The position numbers were made by a program, and so were the translations under genes. This document shows positions 33,227-62,641 of a DNA stretch of 64,000 nt, in pieces; the stretch's first letter is position 1; each line of letters begins with the position of its first letter. Location: the sequence record ON528735; one strand, written 5' to 3'. This stretch comes from Shigella phage ESh25. The notes under the pieces were generated by a model. It saw only the letters and a list, made by a program, of their open reading frames with translations. It did no database searches and was not told where the DNA came from.

Positions 33227-33697
33227 TTAATCATGTGTCCACACCCCATCGGTATTTGACCAAAGTCGTTGATTATCTGATCCTCGCCACAGCTTTTTGG
33301 TCGGAAGATTTTTCTCATACTTCCCATCAATAATAACATCAACATATTTAAGCATTTCTAGTTGTTTAATATCTTCAAACTTATATCCTGTCCACAACCA
33401 AATGCTTTTATTGGGATAAAGATTTTTAATAGTTTGAACCACAGAGTGAATCACGTCTCTGTTATCAGGATAAAGAGGGTCACCTCCGGTTATAGTTAAT
33501 CCTTCTATATAATCATTATTCAAACATTCAATTAATTGTTCTAATGTTTCACCGGTGAATGGAATACCATTTCTAGCATTCCATGTTGATTTATTATAAC
33601 ACCCTTCGCATTTATGCAAACACCCCGTAACGAAAAGAACTGTCCTGCATCCAGGACCATTAACAAAGCAGCACGGGTATATTCTGTCATAATTCAT
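33227..33697 (-). CDS. nrdG: anaerobic ribonucleotide reductase activase NrdG (radical SAM)
   Basis: 156 aa; cysteine cluster CLHKCEGC; follows nrdD. Confidence 0.9.
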   Translation of the reverse strand: MNYDRIYPCCFVNGPGCRTVLFVTGCLHKCEGCYNKSTWNARNGIPFTGETLEQLIECLNNDYIEGLTITGGDPLYPDNRDVIHSVVQTIKNLYPNKSIWLWTGYKFEDIKQLEMLKYVDVIIDGKYEKNLPTKKLWRGSDNQRLWSNTDGVWTHD

Positions 33698-34526
33698 TTA
33701 TATATTTCCAATTATAGCCTTCAACACTTTTACGTTCGCCATTTAAACATTTTAAAATATTTCCTTTGCTAGAAATATTAAAATATTTTGCTGCGTCTGG
33801 TATATAATTAAATGTTTTTAAAAGAACACCATCTTTATATGCGCCAAATAAATTAAGAGTATATTTTTCTCGAAGACGCTGATGTTTCCTTTTCATAACC
33901 TCAGGATTTGCATACGCCAACTTCAATGAATTTCTGTGTTTTTCTTTTACTTCAGGTTTTTGCATTGCTAACTTAGTTAGCCTGGAAATTTTATTTCTAA
34001 CTTCGTCAGTTTTCATTGCATTTGACAAATTTAATAAAGTTTTATTTCTAACTTCAGGTTTTTGCATTGCTAACTTAGTTAGTTCTCTATGTCTTTTTCT
34101 AAAATCGTCATCCTTCCATATATTTTTCGATAATTTTGACATAGAGCGGTGAAATAATTCCTTTTCACTGGAATACAATTTAAAAATTTCATCCAATTCA
34201 TCCGCATTAAATCTATCGGTATTCGAGTTTATCATTCTATGAAAGGCATAACACATTTTACTATTGCTTGTTTTAGCTAAATAGTAATGAGCTAACGCAT
34301 GGTCATAATATGACAAATTAACAATATTCCATTTATCTGTTTTATATTCAGGAAATATAGATTTGGGAAGCACGTGATGTGCTTCCGTTTTTCCTTTTAT
34401 TTTAGGATTATTATAATTTTTTGTTATCAAATCAACATATGACAATAGTAAATCATTATTTTCTTCAAATATTAAAGCTAATTTATCATTCACAAAATCG
34501 CAAGGATAAAATCTATCATAATTCAT
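33687..34526 (-). CDS. HNH homing endonuclease (Mob-like) fused to a duplicated nrdG 5' end
   Basis: 279 aa; HHVLPKS...N...H motif; first 14 residues MNYDRFYPCDFVND parallel nrdG MNYDRIYPCCFVNG. Confidence 0.7.
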   Translation of the reverse strand: MNYDRFYPCDFVNDKLALIFEENNDLLLSYVDLITKNYNNPKIKGKTEAHHVLPKSIFPEYKTDKWNIVNLSYYDHALAHYYLAKTSNSKMCYAFHRMINSNTDRFNADELDEIFKLYSSEKELFHRSMSKLSKNIWKDDDFRKRHRELTKLAMQKPEVRNKTLLNLSNAMKTDEVRNKISRLTKLAMQKPEVKEKHRNSLKLAYANPEVMKRKHQRLREKYTLNLFGAYKDGVLLKTFNYIPDAAKYFNISSKGNILKCLNGERKSVEGYNWKYINEL

Positions 34527-36340
34527 TGGTGTTTAACCCTATGCATGATTTCTTTATTTTTGCCAAGATTAAATCCGCGCTCGTTCGGATTTCCCAAATA
34601 ACCACATGTTCTTCTTATTGTGTTCATCTTTTTAGGATCAGTTTCTCCACAAATAGAACAAACAAATCCGTTTTCAGTAGGAGTCATTTCATGGGTACTT
34701 CCGCATGTAAAACACTTATCTACTGGCATATTAACACCAAAATAATCTAAATGCTGTGCAGCATAATCCCACACGGCCTCAAGACCTTTTAAGTTATTTT
34801 TCATATCAGGAAGTTCAACATAAGAAATGTGACCACCTGTCGCAATGAAATGATATGGCGCTTCACGAGAAATCTTTTCAAACGGAGTAATATTTTCTTC
34901 TACTGAAACATGGAAACTGTTAGTGTACCAGCCTTTATCAGTAACATCTTTTACGCTTCCATATTTTTCTGTATCGAGTTTACAGAAGCGATAACAAAGG
35001 TTTTCAGCAGGAGTCGAATATAAACTAAAAGCAAACCCAGTTCTTTCAGTCCACTGTTTAAGACGAGCATTCATTTTAGTTAAAATTTCTTGTCCAATAT
35101 CACGACCGACAAGAATATTCAATTCATGAATACCAATGTATCCTAAAGACACTGAACTTCTACCGTTTTTAAATAACTCAATTATGTCGTCATCAGGTTT
35201 AAGACGAACCCCGAATGCACCTTCTTGGTAAAGAATAGGAGCAACAGTCGCTTTAACTCCTTTTAAGGAACTAATTCTACACATCAAAGCTTCAAAACAT
35301 AAATCCATTCGTTCATTGAACAATTCGATAAATTTCTGTTCATTGAACTGTGTTCCAATATAAGAATCTAATGCGATACGAGGAAGATTCAGTGTTACAA
35401 CACCGAGATTATTACGTCCATCAAGAATTTCATTGCCAGTCGAATCTTTCCATACGCTCAAGAAACTACGACAACCCATTGGAGAAACAGGAATAGATGA
35501 GCCAGTGATAGCTTTATTGTTCTTAGCTGAAATAATATCAGGATACATTCTTTTGCTTGCGCACTCTAAAGCAAGTTGCTTAATGTCGTAATTCGGATCG
35601 TCTTTATAAAGATTAACGCCTTCTTCAACGAACATAACAAGCTTAGGGAAAATAGGAGTTATCCCATCACGACCAAGACCTTTAATACGATTTTTCAGAA
35701 TTGCTTTCTGAATCATTCGTTCAGTCCAGTCAGTTCCCGTACCAAATGTAATTGTTACAAAAGGCGTTTGTCCGTTTGAACTAAAGAGAGTGTTTACTTC
35801 ATATTCATAAGCTTGGAATGCATCGTATACATCTTTTTCTGTTTTAGATTGAGCATAATTTAACGCATCAGCGATTTGCCATTTTTCTGCATCCTCAATA
35901 TGTTTTGCATAGGTGCGTTTAACATAAGGAGAAAGTACTTTATCTACATTCGCAAAAGTCGTTCCGCCGTATTGGTGAGAAGCAACCTGTGCAGTAATTT
36001 GTGCCATAATTGCAGTAGCAACGCCAATTGATTTAGGAGTTTCAATCTGTGCATTACCAAGCTTAAATCCGTTCTCAAGCATTCCTTTTAAATCTACTAA
36101 ACAACAATTAGTAAATGGAAGAGCAGGGGAATAATCAATATCATGGAAATGAATAATTCCGCTTTCATGCGCTTTCATAATAAAAGACGGGACCATATTT
36201 TTGGCAATGTGTTTAGACACAATACCAGCCATAAGGTCCCGTTGAGTTGGAAAAACACGAGAATCTTTATTAGCATTCTCGTTTAAAAGGTCTTTATTAG
36301 TTTTATGAATCAATCCTTCAATTTCTTTTTCAATTGTCAT
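34523..36340 (-). CDS. nrdD: anaerobic ribonucleotide reductase NrdD, intron-less
   Basis: 605 aa continuous ORF with glycyl radical region and C-terminal Cys cluster. Confidence 0.95.
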   Translation of the reverse strand: MTIEKEIEGLIHKTNKDLLNENANKDSRVFPTQRDLMAGIVSKHIAKNMVPSFIMKAHESGIIHFHDIDYSPALPFTNCCLVDLKGMLENGFKLGNAQIETPKSIGVATAIMAQITAQVASHQYGGTTFANVDKVLSPYVKRTYAKHIEDAEKWQIADALNYAQSKTEKDVYDAFQAYEYEVNTLFSSNGQTPFVTITFGTGTDWTERMIQKAILKNRIKGLGRDGITPIFPKLVMFVEEGVNLYKDDPNYDIKQLALECASKRMYPDIISAKNNKAITGSSIPVSPMGCRSFLSVWKDSTGNEILDGRNNLGVVTLNLPRIALDSYIGTQFNEQKFIELFNERMDLCFEALMCRISSLKGVKATVAPILYQEGAFGVRLKPDDDIIELFKNGRSSVSLGYIGIHELNILVGRDIGQEILTKMNARLKQWTERTGFAFSLYSTPAENLCYRFCKLDTEKYGSVKDVTDKGWYTNSFHVSVEENITPFEKISREAPYHFIATGGHISYVELPDMKNNLKGLEAVWDYAAQHLDYFGVNMPVDKCFTCGSTHEMTPTENGFVCSICGETDPKKMNTIRRTCGYLGNPNERGFNLGKNKEIMHRVKHQ

Positions 36341-51350: not shown

Positions 51351-51538
51351 TATTCTTCTACATGTTGTTTACGACCTTTCCTATCAATAAAGGTATATTC
51401 AACGAATGTTCCAATATAGTCTTTATCTACATCATGTGGACTATTAATTGGGCATTTAGTACGGCAAATGCGTTCCCATTGACGAATAATTTCCACTTTG
51501 TTTTTAGGATCAAACGGATGCGGGTAATGTACTTTCAT
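51326..51538 (-). CDS. hypothetical protein
   Basis: 70 aa ORF. Confidence 0.45.
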   Translation of the reverse strand: MKVHYPHPFDPKNKVEIIRQWERICRTKCPINSPHDVDKDYIGTFVEYTFIDRKGRKQHVEEYCLKVTWL

Positions 51539-51989
51539 AATCCACCACTATTAAATCAATATCAGGAGTAAACATGTCGATTAATTTAGAAACCTTATCC
51601 CAATCGCCGCCAGCAATACCGCAACCTATGCGTGGAATGTAAATTACTGGTTTAAACAAAAGGGTTTCTGCCTGTAGATTTAATTCTATCATGCAGTTTA
51701 CTAAAGCACCATAATCAAGATTAGGACCCGGTTCGTATTGTGTATACAGGTTATAGCATATACCAAATCCCGTAGGACTATGTTTAAAAACAATAGACAT
51801 ATCGCCTAATTTATCACGAGAACCGTACTCGGTAGTGGTTTTATCTATTTCTAAAATTTTGGGATAGGCTCTTGCTAATTGACCCGCTACGCCAGAGCCC
51901 ATTGTGTGGAAGCAATTGCACCCGTGCGCAATAATATTACCTTGAAGAAATAGGGCGACAATATCGCCCTTGATATATTTTACAATCAT
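51510..51989 (-). CDS. macro-domain protein (ADP-ribose binding/processing)
   Basis: 159 aa; GCNCFHTMGSGVAGQL motif typical of macro domains. Confidence 0.6.
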   Translation of the reverse strand: MIVKYIKGDIVALFLQGNIIAHGCNCFHTMGSGVAGQLARAYPKILEIDKTTTEYGSRDKLGDMSIVFKHSPTGFGICYNLYTQYEPGPNLDYGALVNCMIELNLQAETLLFKPVIYIPRIGCGIAGGDWDKVSKLIDMFTPDIDLIVVDYESTLPASV

Positions 51990-52327: not shown

Positions 52328-52865
52328 TTACTATTTCCAAAAGTTTATTATTTTTAAGGTAATTAGCCTTTTCTAGGACTTCAGAAGCATATTTAGAACC
52401 TGCTTTAACATTCCATCCCGAATTATAAGAGGATATTGCTTTTCTTATATCGCCCTTATGTATATTTAACCAATAAGAAAGTTCAATGTACGCCCAGGAA
52501 GCTGAATTGGACCGTTTATTCAACATTCTTTTTATTTCAGCATCGGTCATATTATAACCAAGTTCCTTAACTCTTGCTCGCATAGTAGGCAAATAATTTT
52601 GGAACATTCCATAAGCGTGATGCTTTGGTTTAGATTTTAAATTAACTCCGCCAGAGCTTTCTTGCCATAAAATAGCAGCCATTATATGACCTAATCCGCT
52701 CTTGTGGATATTTTTGTGTGTTTTATATTTTCCATCCTTAGAAAATTGTTCCCCGAATTGATACGCGTAACGCATGTTATCGAGTTGGACATTACTGAAA
52801 GTATGCTCGGAGCTATGTGCCATCATTGAAATGGCCAATAGACCAGCGAGTAGTGCTTTTCTCAT
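52320..52865 (-). CDS. secreted lytic transglycosylase-like protein
   Basis: 181 aa; signal peptide; QESSGG motif. Confidence 0.5.
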   Translation of the reverse strand: MRKALLAGLLAISMMAHSSEHTFSNVQLDNMRYAYQFGEQFSKDGKYKTHKNIHKSGLGHIMAAILWQESSGGVNLKSKPKHHAYGMFQNYLPTMRARVKELGYNMTDAEIKRMLNKRSNSASWAYIELSYWLNIHKGDIRKAISSYNSGWNVKAGSKYASEVLEKANYLKNNKLLEIVND

Positions 52866-52872
52866 GCTTACC

Positions 52873-53334
52873 TCATTGAGTTTTAATTACTGCTTTAGAA
52901 GCCTTTCCTGGTAAACGACGACTGTTGATAATTGCCATCCTACATTGAAGTGACGGGTTTTTGAACTTCTCATTAGGTTTACAAACCGTAAATCCAAGCC
53001 AAAGATTTCCATCTGTAATTTCCAAACGCCCAGGACGATATTCAACCCCATCAATAAAATCCTCGTCAATGTCAGGACGTGGAGGCATACTCAGGAATTC
53101 ATTAACTTCTAAAACATGGTCTTTTATTTTATGGAATAATTCAAAAACGTATGTCTCATCAATCTCCCGTTGAATTGCGCGATCAAGAAGATGTTGAGAA
53201 TATTTTAGATGAAACGATGAGACCCCTGCTGCTTTTGATGCCTCACGAATCTCATTGTTAATTTGACGAAACTCCGACTCAAAGTGACGACGGAGCTTAT
53301 TTCGACGGATAAAAACTTCTGTGTTGATAGTCAT
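52873..53334 (-). CDS. regB: endoribonuclease RegB
   Basis: 153 aa; T4 synteny and size. Confidence 0.8.
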   Translation of the reverse strand: MTINTEVFIRRNKLRRHFESEFRQINNEIREASKAAGVSSFHLKYSQHLLDRAIQREIDETYVFELFHKIKDHVLEVNEFLSMPPRPDIDEDFIDGVEYRPGRLEITDGNLWLGFTVCKPNEKFKNPSLQCRMAIINSRRLPGKASKAVIKTQ

Positions 53335-53361
53335 GTTATTCTCCTCTTAACTGATAGAAAA

Positions 53362-53391
53362 ATTATACCACAGTCAAGAGGAAAAGTAAAC
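53362..53391 (-). promoter_or_regulatory. early promoter (-35 GTTTAC, -10 TATAAT) for regB
   Basis: Consensus hexamers, then SD GAGGAG and regB ATG. Confidence 0.55.
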
Positions 53392-53393
53392 AG

Positions 53394-53672
53394 TTATTCT
53401 TTAAATCTAATCAATTTATTCATAGACTTTGAAACTTCTGCACGAACCTCATGTAAGTTTTTAAGCTGTTCAAGACGCTGCTCATAGTAAGCAATTTCAT
53501 CTTCTTCGAGACAGTCCTGTGAATCTTCTTTAAGATAACGTGCATAGTCCTGAAAAGCTTTACGGACTACTTCCTGGAAGTCATCAAGACTTTGAATTTT
53601 CTTAGGAGCGGCAGATACACGACGAGGTGCAGTATAATACTCATAACCAAACCCTGCACTTAATTGAGCCAT
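53394..53672 (-). CDS. hypothetical protein
   Basis: Track ORF trimmed to MAQLSAG... (TAATG overlap with upstream gene). Confidence 0.45.
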
Positions 53673-53935
53673 TAGTATTTTTCCTCTGGTTGGAACACTG
53701 CACGACAAGCCCACATACTGGCTTCTTTGAGTTTCGTTTTAGCAATAGTTAACTGATCGAGGCTTTCAGCATAATTCTTCGCGAGTTCATCATCTTCACA
53801 ATTATCTAGTGCTTCCCAGAATTCATCGTATAAAGCGTCAAAGATAAGTCCTAAACGAACTTCAGCGTCTTTAATAGCATTTACTTTACCGATTTTTTTC
53901 GTCGGTATGTGGCTTATAACCTTTAATATCTTCAA
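53672..53935 (-). CDS. hypothetical protein
   Basis: 87 aa ORF. Confidence 0.45.
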
Positions 53936-54153
53936 TCATATTTGACTTCCTCACCAGTACATAAATCATATTCAACTAAACGAATAGGTTCATGAATGCC
54001 ATATCCTTGAACAGAAATTTCTGTCGTAGGATAAATTCCATTAATATCACCCATATTCCAGGCTTCATTAAATTGCTGTTCGCCTGAATTACTAAACCAC
54101 TCGGCGAAAGCATTTAGCACATCTTTAGAACCTTCAATAATTATCTTTGCCAT
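53932..54153 (-). CDS. hypothetical protein
   Basis: 73 aa ORF. Confidence 0.45.
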   Translation of the reverse strand: MAKIIIEGSKDVLNAFAEWFSNSGEQQFNEAWNMGDINGIYPTTEISVQGYGIHEPIRLVEYDLCTGEEVKYD

Positions 54154-54515
54154 TACAAACTCTCAGTAAAGGTACGAGCAATAACGTCGCGCTGCTGTTC
54201 CGGAGTCAGAGAGTTAAAGCGAACTGCATAACCGGATACACGGATGGTCAGCTGCGGATATTTTTCCGGATGCTTAACTGCATCTTCCAGAGTTTCGCGA
54301 CGCAGAACGTTAACGTTCAGGTGTTGACCACCTTCAATTTTAACTGTAGGCTGTTGCTCAATTTCAATTTCACGGGCATGCAAACCATAGAAAATTTCTG
54401 GGTCTACAAAAGAGTCCTCTTTAAAGGTTTTAGAGACAATAATTCGTGCTTGAATACCATCTTCAAAATAAATAGTACCTTTATGTGTGCCTTCAAGAAT
54501 TTGATATGCTTTCAT
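54153..54515 (-). CDS. autonomous glycyl-radical cofactor-like protein (GrcA/YfiD-like)
   Basis: 120 aa; C-terminal [25 protein letters not shown] glycyl radical signature. Confidence 0.65.
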
Positions 54516-54522
54516 ATAAACC

Positions 54523-54903
54523 TCAATTAGAAAATAAATTTATCCAAGATTGTTCTTTAATTAAAAATGGCTCAGAATCATATGCCATTAAACTTTGGGT
54601 GATTAGTCCTTTAAAAGGCCCATCAATAAATTCCATGGTAAAATATGGAATTTTATTCATTAGCCGTGCATTAGGAGCAGTACACAAAACTCTGCATCCT
54701 TTGAATACGCCTTTTTGTAATTTGTATTGCTTGGGATAAAATTCGCTCAAAATGTTATTATTTGCTAAAATTTCAAAATGATTCACCAATTTATTTTTAA
54801 TAGTTTTTGGCGAAAAATAAAGATATTCGAAAAGCTGAGTGTCTGTCATCATTGCATTCCGATTACGAAAAACTGTGGACGAGTAATACCACCAATGCAA
54901 CAT
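54523..54903 (-). CDS. hypothetical protein
   Basis: 126 aa track ORF; start probably internal. Confidence 0.45.
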
Positions 54904-55436
54904 TTAATATTACAGCAGCAGTGTACAGTGTCAATATGGACACTATAAATCTTATCCATATCAGGAGATTTGACAGGCTCATCAATTATATACAAAATTC
55001 GCGAAAGCGATAAACCTCTGAACTTGCTTCCTTTATTACCAATAAAACTGCGCACAGAATCAGTAAATAAACGAAAACGTATATCATCATTAGAATAACG
55101 CGAAAATTCCTTTTTAATATTATCTGCGGAAATTTTAGCGTAAGCTGAAGTATTAGAAAGAACAATAACTGTTCCACCGTCATACAACCAATTAGCGGCA
55201 AAATTAGTTACTGCAGTTGATTTACCAGATTGGCGTCCACCATCTAGTCGAAGTGTACAATATTGTTTAAGCAAGTCTTCAAATGGTGGGATATAATCGT
55301 TTTTACAAATTTCTTCTACTCTAGCATCAGAATGGTGTGTAAAAGCATTCATCAGGGATAGATAAGGACCAGTTAAAAATGTTCTCATTTTATTCTCTCT
55401 AAATTTGGGCCATTCCATGGCGCATGAATTGTCCAT
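54849..55436 (-). CDS. P-loop protein
   Basis: GGRQSGKST Walker A; start probably internal (MRTFLTG...). Confidence 0.45.
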   Translation of the reverse strand: MDNSCAMEWPKFRENKMRTFLTGPYLSLMNAFTHHSDARVEEICKNDYIPPFEDLLKQYCTLRLDGGRQSGKSTAVTNFAANWLYDGGTVIVLSNTSAYAKISADNIKKEFSRYSNDDIRFRLFTDSVRSFIGNKGSKFRGLSLSRILYIIDEPVKSPDMDKIYSVHIDTVHCCCNIKCCIGGITRPQFFVIGMQ

Positions 55437-55533
55437 TTCTGTATTTACCCATTACCGCACTTGGGCTCGACCTTATTACAGGTTGGCGGGAATCCCTCAC
55501 AGAATCATGAGGTCCAGGTTATTCCCATGTTAT

Positions 55534-55950
55534 TTAAATGTAAATATTTTTGCCGTAATACTTATACCAGTGTGGCTTCATTAAAATTTTTTCATCGAGT
55601 CGTTGTTGACTCAACTTAATAGCTGATTTGCATGGATTATAATCATTTTTCCATTCTACTGGAATATCGCTGATGTCAGGAACTTCAGTATCTTTTATAC
55701 TGAACCCGCGTTTTAAGCATTCCGTTATAATGTCCGATTGACGCTTTCGCAAAAATTCTAACTTATCGTAAAAGAAAGTAACATGACCAGAACCTAAAAT
55801 AAATTTAGAAGATATTTTAAAATCTTTAACGCGCTTACCGTTTGCCACATGCTTACGAACTATACCAAAAACACGCGGCAATTCACGGTATTCTGCGATT
55901 AAATGTTGATCAGCAAGTTCAGATACTAAAGTCAAATTAATACGAGTCAT
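55534..55950 (-). CDS. denV: endonuclease V (pyrimidine dimer glycosylase)
   Basis: 138 aa; recognised as T4 DenV. Confidence 0.9.
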
Positions 55951-55975
55951 TTTATCCCTCCAAGTAACTGTGAAT

Positions 55976-56005
55976 ATACTATCACAATTCTAGGAGAAAG
56001 TAAAC
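55976..56005 (-). promoter_or_regulatory. early promoter for denV
   Basis: GTTTAC -35 and TAGTAT -10, then SD GGAGGG. Confidence 0.5.
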
Positions 56006-56009
56006 AACT

Positions 56010-56540
<531 letters not shown>

Positions 56541-61238: not shown

Positions 61239-61314
61239 TGGTCGAGGCAGTAGGAATCGAACCTACGACCTAGGACTTAGAAGGTCCTTGCTCTTCCTTC
61301 TGAGCTATGCCTCG
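61239..61314 (-). tRNA. tRNA-Arg (anticodon UCU)
   Basis: Manual fold: 7 bp acceptor, D and T arms, loop CTTCTAA, encoded CCA. Confidence 0.75.
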
Positions 61315-61318
61315 GATT

Positions 61319-61393
61319 TGGCGGACGTGATAGGATTCGAACCTATAACCAATCGCTTAACAGGCGATCGCTCTGCCATTGAGCTACACATCC
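61319..61393 (-). tRNA. tRNA-Asn (anticodon GUU)
   Basis: Manual fold: loop CTGTTAA, GGTTCGAAT T-loop, encoded CCA. Confidence 0.7.
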
Positions 61394-61397
61394 AAAT

Positions 61398-61484
61398 TGG
61401 TGGGGAGTGGTGGAGTCGAACCACCCGAGTCGCAATGACAATGGATTTACAGTCCACACCGCTACCTCTACGGGATAACTCCCC
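61398..61484 (-). tRNA. type II tRNA-like, possibly tRNA-Tyr (GUA)
   Basis: 87 nt; acceptor GGGGAGT/ACTCCCC, T-arm GGTGG-TTCGACT-CCACC, long variable arm, candidate loop CTGTAAA; D-arm irregular. Confidence 0.45.
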
Positions 61485-61493
61485 AAATTAATT

Positions 61494-61568
61494 TGGTGGC
61501 CCTGGGTGGAATTGAACCACCATCTGGCGATTATGAGTCGCTTGCTTGAACCTTCCAGCTACAGGGCC
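61494..61568 (-). tRNA. tRNA-Ile/Met type (anticodon CAU)
   Basis: Manual fold: loop CTCATAA, encoded CCA. Confidence 0.75.
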
Positions 61569-61569
61569 T

Positions 61570-61645
61570 TGGTGCTGATTGACGGAATCGAACCGCCGAC
61601 CTTCTCATTACAAGTGAGTTGCTCTACCTACTGAGCTAAATCAGC
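61570..61645 (-). tRNA. tRNA-Thr (anticodon UGU)
   Basis: Manual fold: loop CTTGTAA, encoded CCA. Confidence 0.75.
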
Positions 61646-61650
61646 AAAAC

Positions 61651-61740
61651 TGGCGGAGGCGATAGGATTTGAACCTATGAGTCGCCGGAGCGACTGCCGG
61701 TTTTCAAGACCGGTGCATTAAACCACTCTGCCACGCCTCC
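61651..61740 (-). tRNA. tRNA-Ser (anticodon UGA), type II
   Basis: Manual fold: long variable arm, loop CTTGAAA, encoded CCA. Confidence 0.75.
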
Positions 61741-61743
61741 AAA

Positions 61744-61751
61744 TATTTATA
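61744..61751 (-). promoter_or_regulatory. possible late promoter TATAAATA at segB 3' end
   Basis: Exact 8-mer on minus strand overlapping last segB codons, a few nt 5' of tRNA-Ser; could be chance in AT-rich DNA. Confidence 0.3.
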
Positions 61752-62355
61752 TATTGTTAATTTGATTTAGAATTCTTTTTGCTTGAGTATGACTTACGCC
61801 AATATGCTTAGCATATTTAGATAATTCACCCCGCTTAGAAAAATCATATAATTTAGAAATTTCTATTCTTCTTTTTCTTTCATCCGCAGAAACTTTTGCT
61901 TCGTTTGCTTTTGCTATTTTACGTTTAGCTTCTTGAGAATGAGTTTTACCAGCAAAGCCATTTTTCATTAATCCATTTGAAGACCATCCTTTTAATTTTC
62001 CGTTAGAATGTGCCTTTTTAACACCCAATGAAATTAATTCGCGTTGCTGATCTGTCATAGGATAATTATTTATATGATCCCATCCACCTTCACCTCCAAG
62101 TTTTAAATTATACACATCTGGTCTATTTAAAAACTCTTCTGTGACAATATTTTTCTCGGCTTCAAGCATAGATTCTTTATCATCAAAATACTCTAATATT
62201 TCTTTAGAAAAATTTTCTATGCCATATTTATCTTGGGCTCTTTTTAATAATTTACCAGAACCCATATATCCATCATCTAAATTTTCGGTAGAATGCACAC
62301 CAATATAAATTTTATTATTAATTTTATTTGTTATTTTATAAAGATAAAAATGCAT
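61747..62355 (-). CDS. segB: GIY-YIG homing endonuclease SegB
   Basis: FYLYKITNK...IYIGV motif; embedded in the tRNA cluster as in T4; track ORF starts at ATG 62397 (216 aa), I prefer ATG 62355 next to the motif. Confidence 0.8.
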   Translation of the reverse strand: MHFYLYKITNKINNKIYIGVHSTENLDDGYMGSGKLLKRAQDKYGIENFSKEILEYFDDKESMLEAEKNIVTEEFLNRPDVYNLKLGGEGGWDHINNYPMTDQQRELISLGVKKAHSNGKLKGWSSNGLMKNGFAGKTHSQEAKRKIAKANEAKVSADERKRRIEISKLYDFSKRGELSKYAKHIGVSHTQAKRILNQINNI

Positions 62356-62401
62356 ATCAGTCCCTAATAAAGAACTGAGCGTCTCACGACGAGTCATAAA
62401 T

Positions 62402-62475
<74 letters not shown>

Positions 62476-62480
62476 AAATT

Positions 62481-62567
62481 TGGTGCGAGAAGTGGGACTC
62501 GAACCCACAAGGAAATCATTCCGCAGCATTTTAAGTGCTGTGCCTTTACCAATTTGACCATTCTCGC
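62481..62567 (-). tRNA. tRNA-Leu (anticodon UAA), type II
   Basis: Manual fold: long variable arm, loop CTTAAAA, encoded CCA. Confidence 0.75.
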
Positions 62568-62568
62568 G

Positions 62569-62641
62569 CTGGGAATAAAGGACTCGAACCTTTGCATCTA
62601 GCAGTCAAAGTGCTATGCCTTACCAACTTGGCTAATTCCCA
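62569..62641 (-). tRNA. tRNA-Gln (anticodon UUG), no encoded CCA
   Basis: Manual fold: loop CTTTGAC; abuts tRNA-Leu (dimeric precursor arrangement). Confidence 0.7.

Follow-up and report, generated by a model that had tools for sequence, protein, structure and literature searches.

The stretch of Shigella phage ESh25 analysed here (record ON528735, 64,000 nt, called the window) carries the ortholog of phage T4 gene vs.6, and we put at roughly 85% the reading that vs.6 of T4-like phages supplies a stand-alone pyruvate formate-lyase (PFL) radical domain that repairs oxygen-cleaved host PflB. The gene is GrcA-like, with the glycyl radical domain and motif, and is orthologous to T4 Y06I. This is textbook T4 biology, already known and not a new lead. 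The gene is also a mosaic of phage and host sequence, a modest evolutionary curiosity and the only part of possible interest to a specialist.

The gene and its surroundings comprise the following features.
52873..53334: regB (Pfam REGB_T4, 5.9e-69)
53672..53935, minus strand: vs.4, 87 aa, with an Acb2/Tad1 hairpin domain (Pfam PF24729, 3.3e-15)
53932..54153: vs.5
54153..54515, minus strand: vs.6 / Y06I ortholog, GrcA-like, 120 aa, an ATG-to-TAA reading frame, stop codon included
54523..54903: vs.7
54907..54934, minus strand: candidate early promoter of vs.7-vs.6-vs.5-vs.4, a sigma-70-like TTGACA-16-TAATAT 5′ of vs.7, from a consensus scan
55534..55950: denV
56010..56504: lysozyme gene e

An earlier note on this DNA had called a gene of 120 aa at 54153-54515 without giving a strand; the reading frame confirms it, on the minus strand. 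A putative Shine-Dalgarno sequence, GAGG, can be read at 54521..54524 (minus strand), 5 nt 5′ of the vs.6 ATG, where it overlaps the TGA stop of upstream vs.7; at the other end the TAA stop of vs.6 and the ATG of the next gene share bases in TAATG. Such tight packing is typical of T4 early gene blocks. An antisense reading frame of 127 aa (54147..54530, plus strand) was rejected as the shadow of the real vs.6 gene. Match counts from a promoter and terminator scan of positions 52800-56100 were not above the shuffled expectation, so the promoter-like site 5′ of vs.7 counts as a consensus match and nothing further. The T4 record X04567 has a -35/-10 pair annotated at the equivalent place.

Several neighbours deserve separate mention. 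The vs.4-type gene (53672-53935, minus strand), two genes downstream of vs.6, is a T4-type anti-CBASS sponge, labelled 'anti-CBASS protein 2' in one close relative. A 195-aa reading frame 5′ of vs.7 (54849-55436, minus strand) falls in PHROG 1488, of unknown function; it has a P-loop-like motif, GGRQSGKST, and a weak match to a terminase large-subunit ATPase profile (PHROG 2, 2.5e-6), and its product may be an uncharacterised small ATPase. Between e and denV, X04567 has ipIII and ipII; in the window denV is followed directly by e, with both genes absent at 55950-56010. A 159-aa reading frame adjoining vs (51510-51989, minus strand) sits where T4 has tk.4; orthologs of tk.4 give a match to the A1pp/macro phosphatase domain (PMC1524935). 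Farther away, at 61242-62641 on the minus strand, lies a T4-type tRNA region with nine matches, one of which (61403-61482) is barely above its gathering score (30.3 versus 29). With Rfam at gathering thresholds over the whole window, this tRNA cluster was the only match, and none fell near vs.6.

Gene order and sequence agree on orthology. The window belongs to a T4-like phage: the 3-kb surroundings of vs.6 are 98% identical in nucleotides to many Tequatrovirus genomes (e.g. Shigella phage CM8 and Escherichia phage Elenatom), many of which label the gene "autonomous glycyl radical cofactor (GrcA)" or "pyruvate formate-lyase". The order regB, (vs.3), vs.4/Acb2, vs.5, vs.6, vs.7, vs.8, denV is that of both X04567 and RB69. 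The protein has 98.3% amino acid identity to "ORF 63.1 (AA 1-120)" of X04567 and 94.2% to RB69 "vs.6" (tblastn), while the flanking vs.7 and vs.5 are 68% and 74% identical to those of RB69. On these comparisons the window gene is the ortholog of T4 vs.6 (Y06I, ORF 63.1). Nolan et al. 2006 (PMC1524935) compared six T4-like genomes, listed vs.6 as a Gly_radical ORF and found it conserved in all of them, and our tblastn search found homologues in 1,588 of 50,697 phage records. The PHROG 1209 profile (121 positions) covers residues 1-120 of the protein (5.7e-63).

The C-terminal half of the protein is a PFL-type glycyl radical domain. Pfam PF01228 (Gly_radical) matches residues 60-101 with E=2.5e-18 and 67 bits against a cut-off of 22.2. 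Among solved structures the best match is E. coli GrcA (6OWR, NMR; E=9.3e-42, residues 22-120 on 28-127), followed by PflB (1H16/2PFL; E=5e-26, residues 58-120 on PflB 697-759). Alignment to E. coli GrcA, the check that the earlier note had proposed, thus holds far beyond chance, and the C-terminal glycyl radical signature named there is present; the protein runs five residues past the string quoted there (TESL). Identity to E. coli GrcA 68-127, the structured domain of 6OWR, is 100% over residues 61-120, which makes a structure model of the phage protein unnecessary; AlphaFold2 run on the single sequence gave a mean pLDDT of 34.8 and was unusable. The alignments to 6OWR and 1H16 also place the radical glycine.
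54231..54233, minus strand: codon of the predicted radical-site residue, Gly95 in RVSGY, by translation and alignment

Its counterparts are G102 of GrcA and G734 of PflB (equivalence per PMC12338860). The protein is therefore what is called an autonomous glycyl radical cofactor, being small and stand-alone, with a PFL-type domain carrying the RVSGY glycine in its C-terminal ~60 residues. The NCBIfam GrcA model (TIGR04365) aligns to residues 20-120 over model positions 25-126 with an E-value of 1.2e-45, and its score, 154.9 bits, lies below the curated cut-off of 170 because the N-terminal half is diverged and phage-specific. For this reason we class the protein with a phage Vs.6/Y06I branch of GrcA-like proteins and not as a bacterial GrcA equivalog.

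What such a protein does is known from its T4 and E. coli relatives. Knappe and co-workers found one spare-part protein of ~14 kDa each in E. coli (YfiD) and T4 (Y06I) (PMC8683613, JBC 2021). As that paper recounts Wagner et al. 2001 (BBRC 285:456), these two are the only validated spare-part proteins, the PFL activating enzyme installs a glycyl radical on both, and both form a complex with O2-cleaved PFL and restore its activity, a rescue that for the T4 protein was seen in vitro. GrcA residues 61-127 take the fold of PFL 693-759 and insert into PFL. Tight binding and efficient activation require the disordered residues 1-60, and catalysis does not (PMC8683613). The radical passes from GrcA G102 to PflB C419 (PMC12338860). 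The suggestion in the earlier note of a GrcA-like spare part for an oxygen-damaged host enzyme is accordingly supported through the T4 Y06I ortholog (98.3% aa identity), to the extent that PMC8683613 relates the original work, and a benefit in vivo is something we infer. Both halves of vs.6 are under purifying selection (dN/dS ~0.1-0.17).

In the proposed mechanism, vs.6 would be expressed from the early vs.7-vs.4 gene block and its product would dock on host PflB whose radical domain oxygen has cut at Gly734. The host activase PflA, a radical SAM enzyme, would remove a hydrogen from the phage protein at Gly95, and the Gly95 radical would then serve PflB Cys419, restoring the step that turns pyruvate into acetyl-CoA and formate. 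The radical-domain half, apparently copied from E. coli grcA recently, would fit host PflA and PflB exactly. T4 shut-off of host expression would presumably leave the cell with no new GrcA or PflB, and the phage copy could keep the fermentative supply of ATP and acetyl-CoA going in a micro-oxic infection. Sustained PFL would also provide formate for the phage NrdD and might in this way sustain anaerobic dNTP synthesis; formate is the reductant of class III ribonucleotide reductases, that of T4 included (PMC4493059).

The N-terminal half is phage-specific and, by analogy with GrcA, would matter for binding to cleaved PFL, so binding by the phage protein could differ from that by the host protein. 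One might go further and see in it a decoy or regulator that occupies PflA or PflB and redirects or damps host pyruvate metabolism. The 59 phage-specific N-terminal residues are indeed conserved across phage lineages (with an MKAYQ... start), and it is the N-terminal half that governs binding and activation in GrcA. However, a blocker would have no need for a radical glycine and an entire catalytic-fit domain kept host-identical, as they are here, and Y06I is reported, in the account of PMC8683613, to restore PFL activity. We regard a decoy as very unlikely and prefer the repair of PflB.

The window encodes a second glycyl-radical component, as the earlier note had said in pointing to nrdD and nrdG; Pfam and NCBIfam matches identify both genes.
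33227..33697, minus strand: nrdG, activase of NrdD (TIGR02491, 197.2 bits against a cut-off of 126.1)
34523..36340, minus strand: nrdD, anaerobic (class III) ribonucleotide reductase, 605 aa (Pfam NRDD 1.1e-171, Gly_radical 1.2e-25, NF006732 909 bits)

NrdD also passes TIGR02487. Its gene is one uninterrupted 605-aa reading frame, and no group I intron was found by Rfam anywhere in the window. Between nrdD and nrdG, a 279-aa reading frame (33687-34526, minus strand) matches the homing-endonuclease PHROG 655 (7e-37), with a weak I-HmuI NUMOD-like match.

With nrdD and nrdG in the same window as vs.6, the small protein could be imagined to serve the phage reductase, radicalised by NrdG and replacing the O2-cleaved C-terminus of NrdD instead of that of PflB. 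A role in nucleotide metabolism was speculated on in PMC1524935, and two phages have the GrcA-like gene next to those of the reductase system: Salmonella phage SE_PL between nrdD and nrdG, and Aeromonas phage Aswh_1 immediately after nrdG. The adjacency is equally well explained by PFL formate feeding NrdD, and the sequences speak against the idea. BLASTP of the Vs.6 protein against the window NrdD gave a best E of 2.6 with the radical motif unaligned, hence no similarity to the NrdD C-terminus, whereas the domain is identical to that of E. coli GrcA and matches PflB at 5e-26. NrdG, for its part, fails the model of PflA-type activases (TIGR02493 PFLA, 50.2 bits against a cut-off of 231.75), and the T4 protein is reported, again in the part of the literature relayed by PMC8683613, to work with the PFL activase and cleaved PFL. 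The candidate was rejected on the missing BLASTP similarity to the phage NrdD, and we consider it very unlikely. The absence of that similarity, together with the failure of NrdG on the PFLA model, indicates two distinct glycyl-radical systems, with Vs.6 depending on host PflA and PflB. The activase of the Vs.6 protein is host PflA and not phage NrdG, a statement carried over to this phage by analogy.

The two systems may still be coupled through formate. A T5-like phage, chee130_1, has the GrcA-like gene and a class III reductase ~29 kb apart, and nrdD was present in every sampled phage lineage with a GrcA-like gene, a count of four lineages, too few to serve as a statistical test. Co-occurrence in these four fits PFL-made formate feeding NrdD.

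The vs.6 gene falls into two parts of different origin.
54338..54515, minus strand: phage-specific 5′ part, codons 1-59, GC 0.34 and GC3 0.20 (typical of phage), ~50% nt identity to E. coli grcA
54163..54337, minus strand: host-identical patch, gene nt 179-353, codons 60/61-118, corresponding to E. coli grcA nt 200-374 with one mismatch

Against grcA of E. coli ER1709, the sole mismatch of the patch is synonymous, at gene nt 336, and the exact run is 157 nt. A blastn search of 5,426 complete E. coli genomes matched only gene nt 179-363 (54153..54337), at 97.8% to grcA in every genome. In the codon alignment there are zero differences from codon 61 to 111; synonymous differences cluster in the last three vs.6 codons, and the sequence past the stop is unrelated. 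Over the last 61 codons, identity to grcA is 97.3% for E. coli, 89% for Citrobacter, 84% for a Klebsiella sp. and 82% for Salmonella. The patch encodes the counterpart of GrcA residues 68-127, nearly the whole structured domain in the NMR model (61-127). Its GC is 0.50 and its GC3 0.43, a GC3 reached by 0.4% of 58-codon stretches in the minus-strand reading frames of at least 100 codons in the window. In the 5′ part, alignment to the GrcA HMM starts at residue 20-22, and dN/dS between T4-type and RB69-type phages is ~0.1.

The direction of transfer was from host to phage, since the divergence of E. coli grcA from those of Citrobacter and Salmonella is even across its two halves and the patch has the GC of the host; transfer from phage to E. 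coli was ruled out on the same two grounds. Convergent codon optimisation as the cause of the identity was likewise ruled out, the 5′ half of vs.6 having a GC3 of 0.20. A literature search found no report of the vs.6 mosaic among the papers that it covered, although it may have been noticed earlier.

A nearly perfect copy of host sequence, with host-like GC, over nt 179-353 might suggest that vs.6 is recently captured DNA without function for the phage. The gene is nevertheless full-length and in frame with a Shine-Dalgarno sequence, it is conserved in the 1,588 phage records, including lineages without the host-identical stretch, dN/dS is ~0.1 for either half, and the 5′ half represents an old phage form of this gene that has diverged. 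Functionless capture is thus extremely unlikely, and a working spare part for PflB remains the reading that we prefer.

The patch is widespread within a narrow set of phages. It is carried by 632 GenBank phage records at 95-99% identity and by six of 80 IMG/VR loci, and all carriers examined are of T4 or RB69 type. In the sampled records it starts at E. coli nt 200, with one exception at nt 205. A comparison of 10 GenBank phages and 80 IMG/VR loci with 81 grcA genes from enterobacteria, Pasteurellaceae and others gave no host-matched patches outside the T4/RB69 group. Phages without the patch, namely Krischvirus GEC-3S (an E. coli phage), T5-like phages, Klebsiella Jiaodavirus and Slopekvirus, Citrobacter phage Margaery, the jumbo phage SE_PL and Aeromonas phage Aswh_1, reach only 70-88% identity to any of the 81 host genes in their 3′ halves, with exact grcA runs of at most 56 nt.

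Divergence between T4-type and RB69-type phages collapses at the patch boundary. Upstream there are 18-19 differences in 178 nt, four of them in the 20 nt that adjoin the boundary, and in the patch 0-4 in 175, no more than within one group. The corresponding dS values are 0.43 and 0.07, and for the window against RB69 the upstream and patch differences give p=2.8e-4 by Fisher's exact test. This collapse dates the patch to long after these phage genera separated. Judged by dS, the split of E. coli and Citrobacter (0.42) predates it as well. Other phage pairs have a 3′ half dS roughly half that of the 5′ half, so some of the rate difference is intrinsic, though not a five- to six-fold one. At one synonymous site in the patch (phage nt 219, E. 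coli nt 240), ER1709 has C and SK1144 has T, and both states occur in both phage groups.

These patterns raise the possibility that the radical-domain half of vs.6 in T4- and RB69-type phages has been overwritten repeatedly by host grcA through homologous recombination in lytic infection, to which we give somewhat less than even odds. The ends of the tracts would then be set by the edges of host-phage homology, that is, the universally conserved peptide and the stop codon. The alternative would be one grcA capture followed by spread among phages as a patch-sized segment. The collapse at a homology edge and the shared polymorphism favour repeated conversion over a single capture, the polymorphism being one site and thin evidence. 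To our knowledge, virulent T-even phages are not usually thought to recombine with the host chromosome.

In the Klebsiella phages of Jiaodavirus, the 3′ half has a GC3 of 0.57-0.59 against 0.24-0.26 in the 5′ half. These 3′ halves are marginally closest to grcA of Klebsiella, Pseudocitrobacter and similar hosts, at ~87-88% (Klebsiella 86.9%), in a host set that did not include K. pneumoniae proper. By composition, they may represent an older host-derived replacement that is now diverging.

As an annotation the gene brings nothing new, hundreds of GenBank phage records already naming GrcA. It belongs with nrdD and nrdG to a set of anaerobic and micro-oxic metabolism genes in T-even phages that suits the gut. 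The mosaic provides ~175 nt of what is in essence E. coli sequence within an old phage gene, a natural marker of host-phage exchange, and the patch delimits as a functional module the structured radical domain, which has to match the host. If repeated conversion is true, the phage spare part would be kept matched base for base to E. coli PflA and PflB while its N-terminal half evolves independently.

Compared with known systems, the window gene is closest to T4 Vs.6/Y06I (ORF 63.1). Both encode 120 aa and differ at six of 363 nt and at two residues (Q54P and R73H); at residue 73 T4 has His and the window copy Arg, as in E. coli, and there is otherwise essentially no difference. The neighbours are alike, with vs.7 upstream and both vs.5 and vs.4 downstream, and the two genes have the host-identical 3′ patch in common. 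The other phages of PHROG 1209 (T5-like, Krischvirus, Slopekvirus, Jiaodavirus, jumbo and Aeromonas phages) have the same architecture and a phage-type N-terminus, but their 3′ halves are 70-88% identical in nucleotides to any enterobacterial grcA sampled and the host-identical patch is found in none of them. E. coli GrcA (YfiD) is likewise a small stand-alone protein, with homology detectable from Vs.6 residue ~20 on; the phage protein has 7 aa fewer and an N-terminal half that is encoded by AT-rich sequence and is only weakly similar, with ~30-50% amino acid identity in aligned blocks, and its gene belongs to a lytic phage and is expressed under phage signals. Unlike PflB, it lacks the catalytic barrel (PflB 1-695) and so is unable to act alone.
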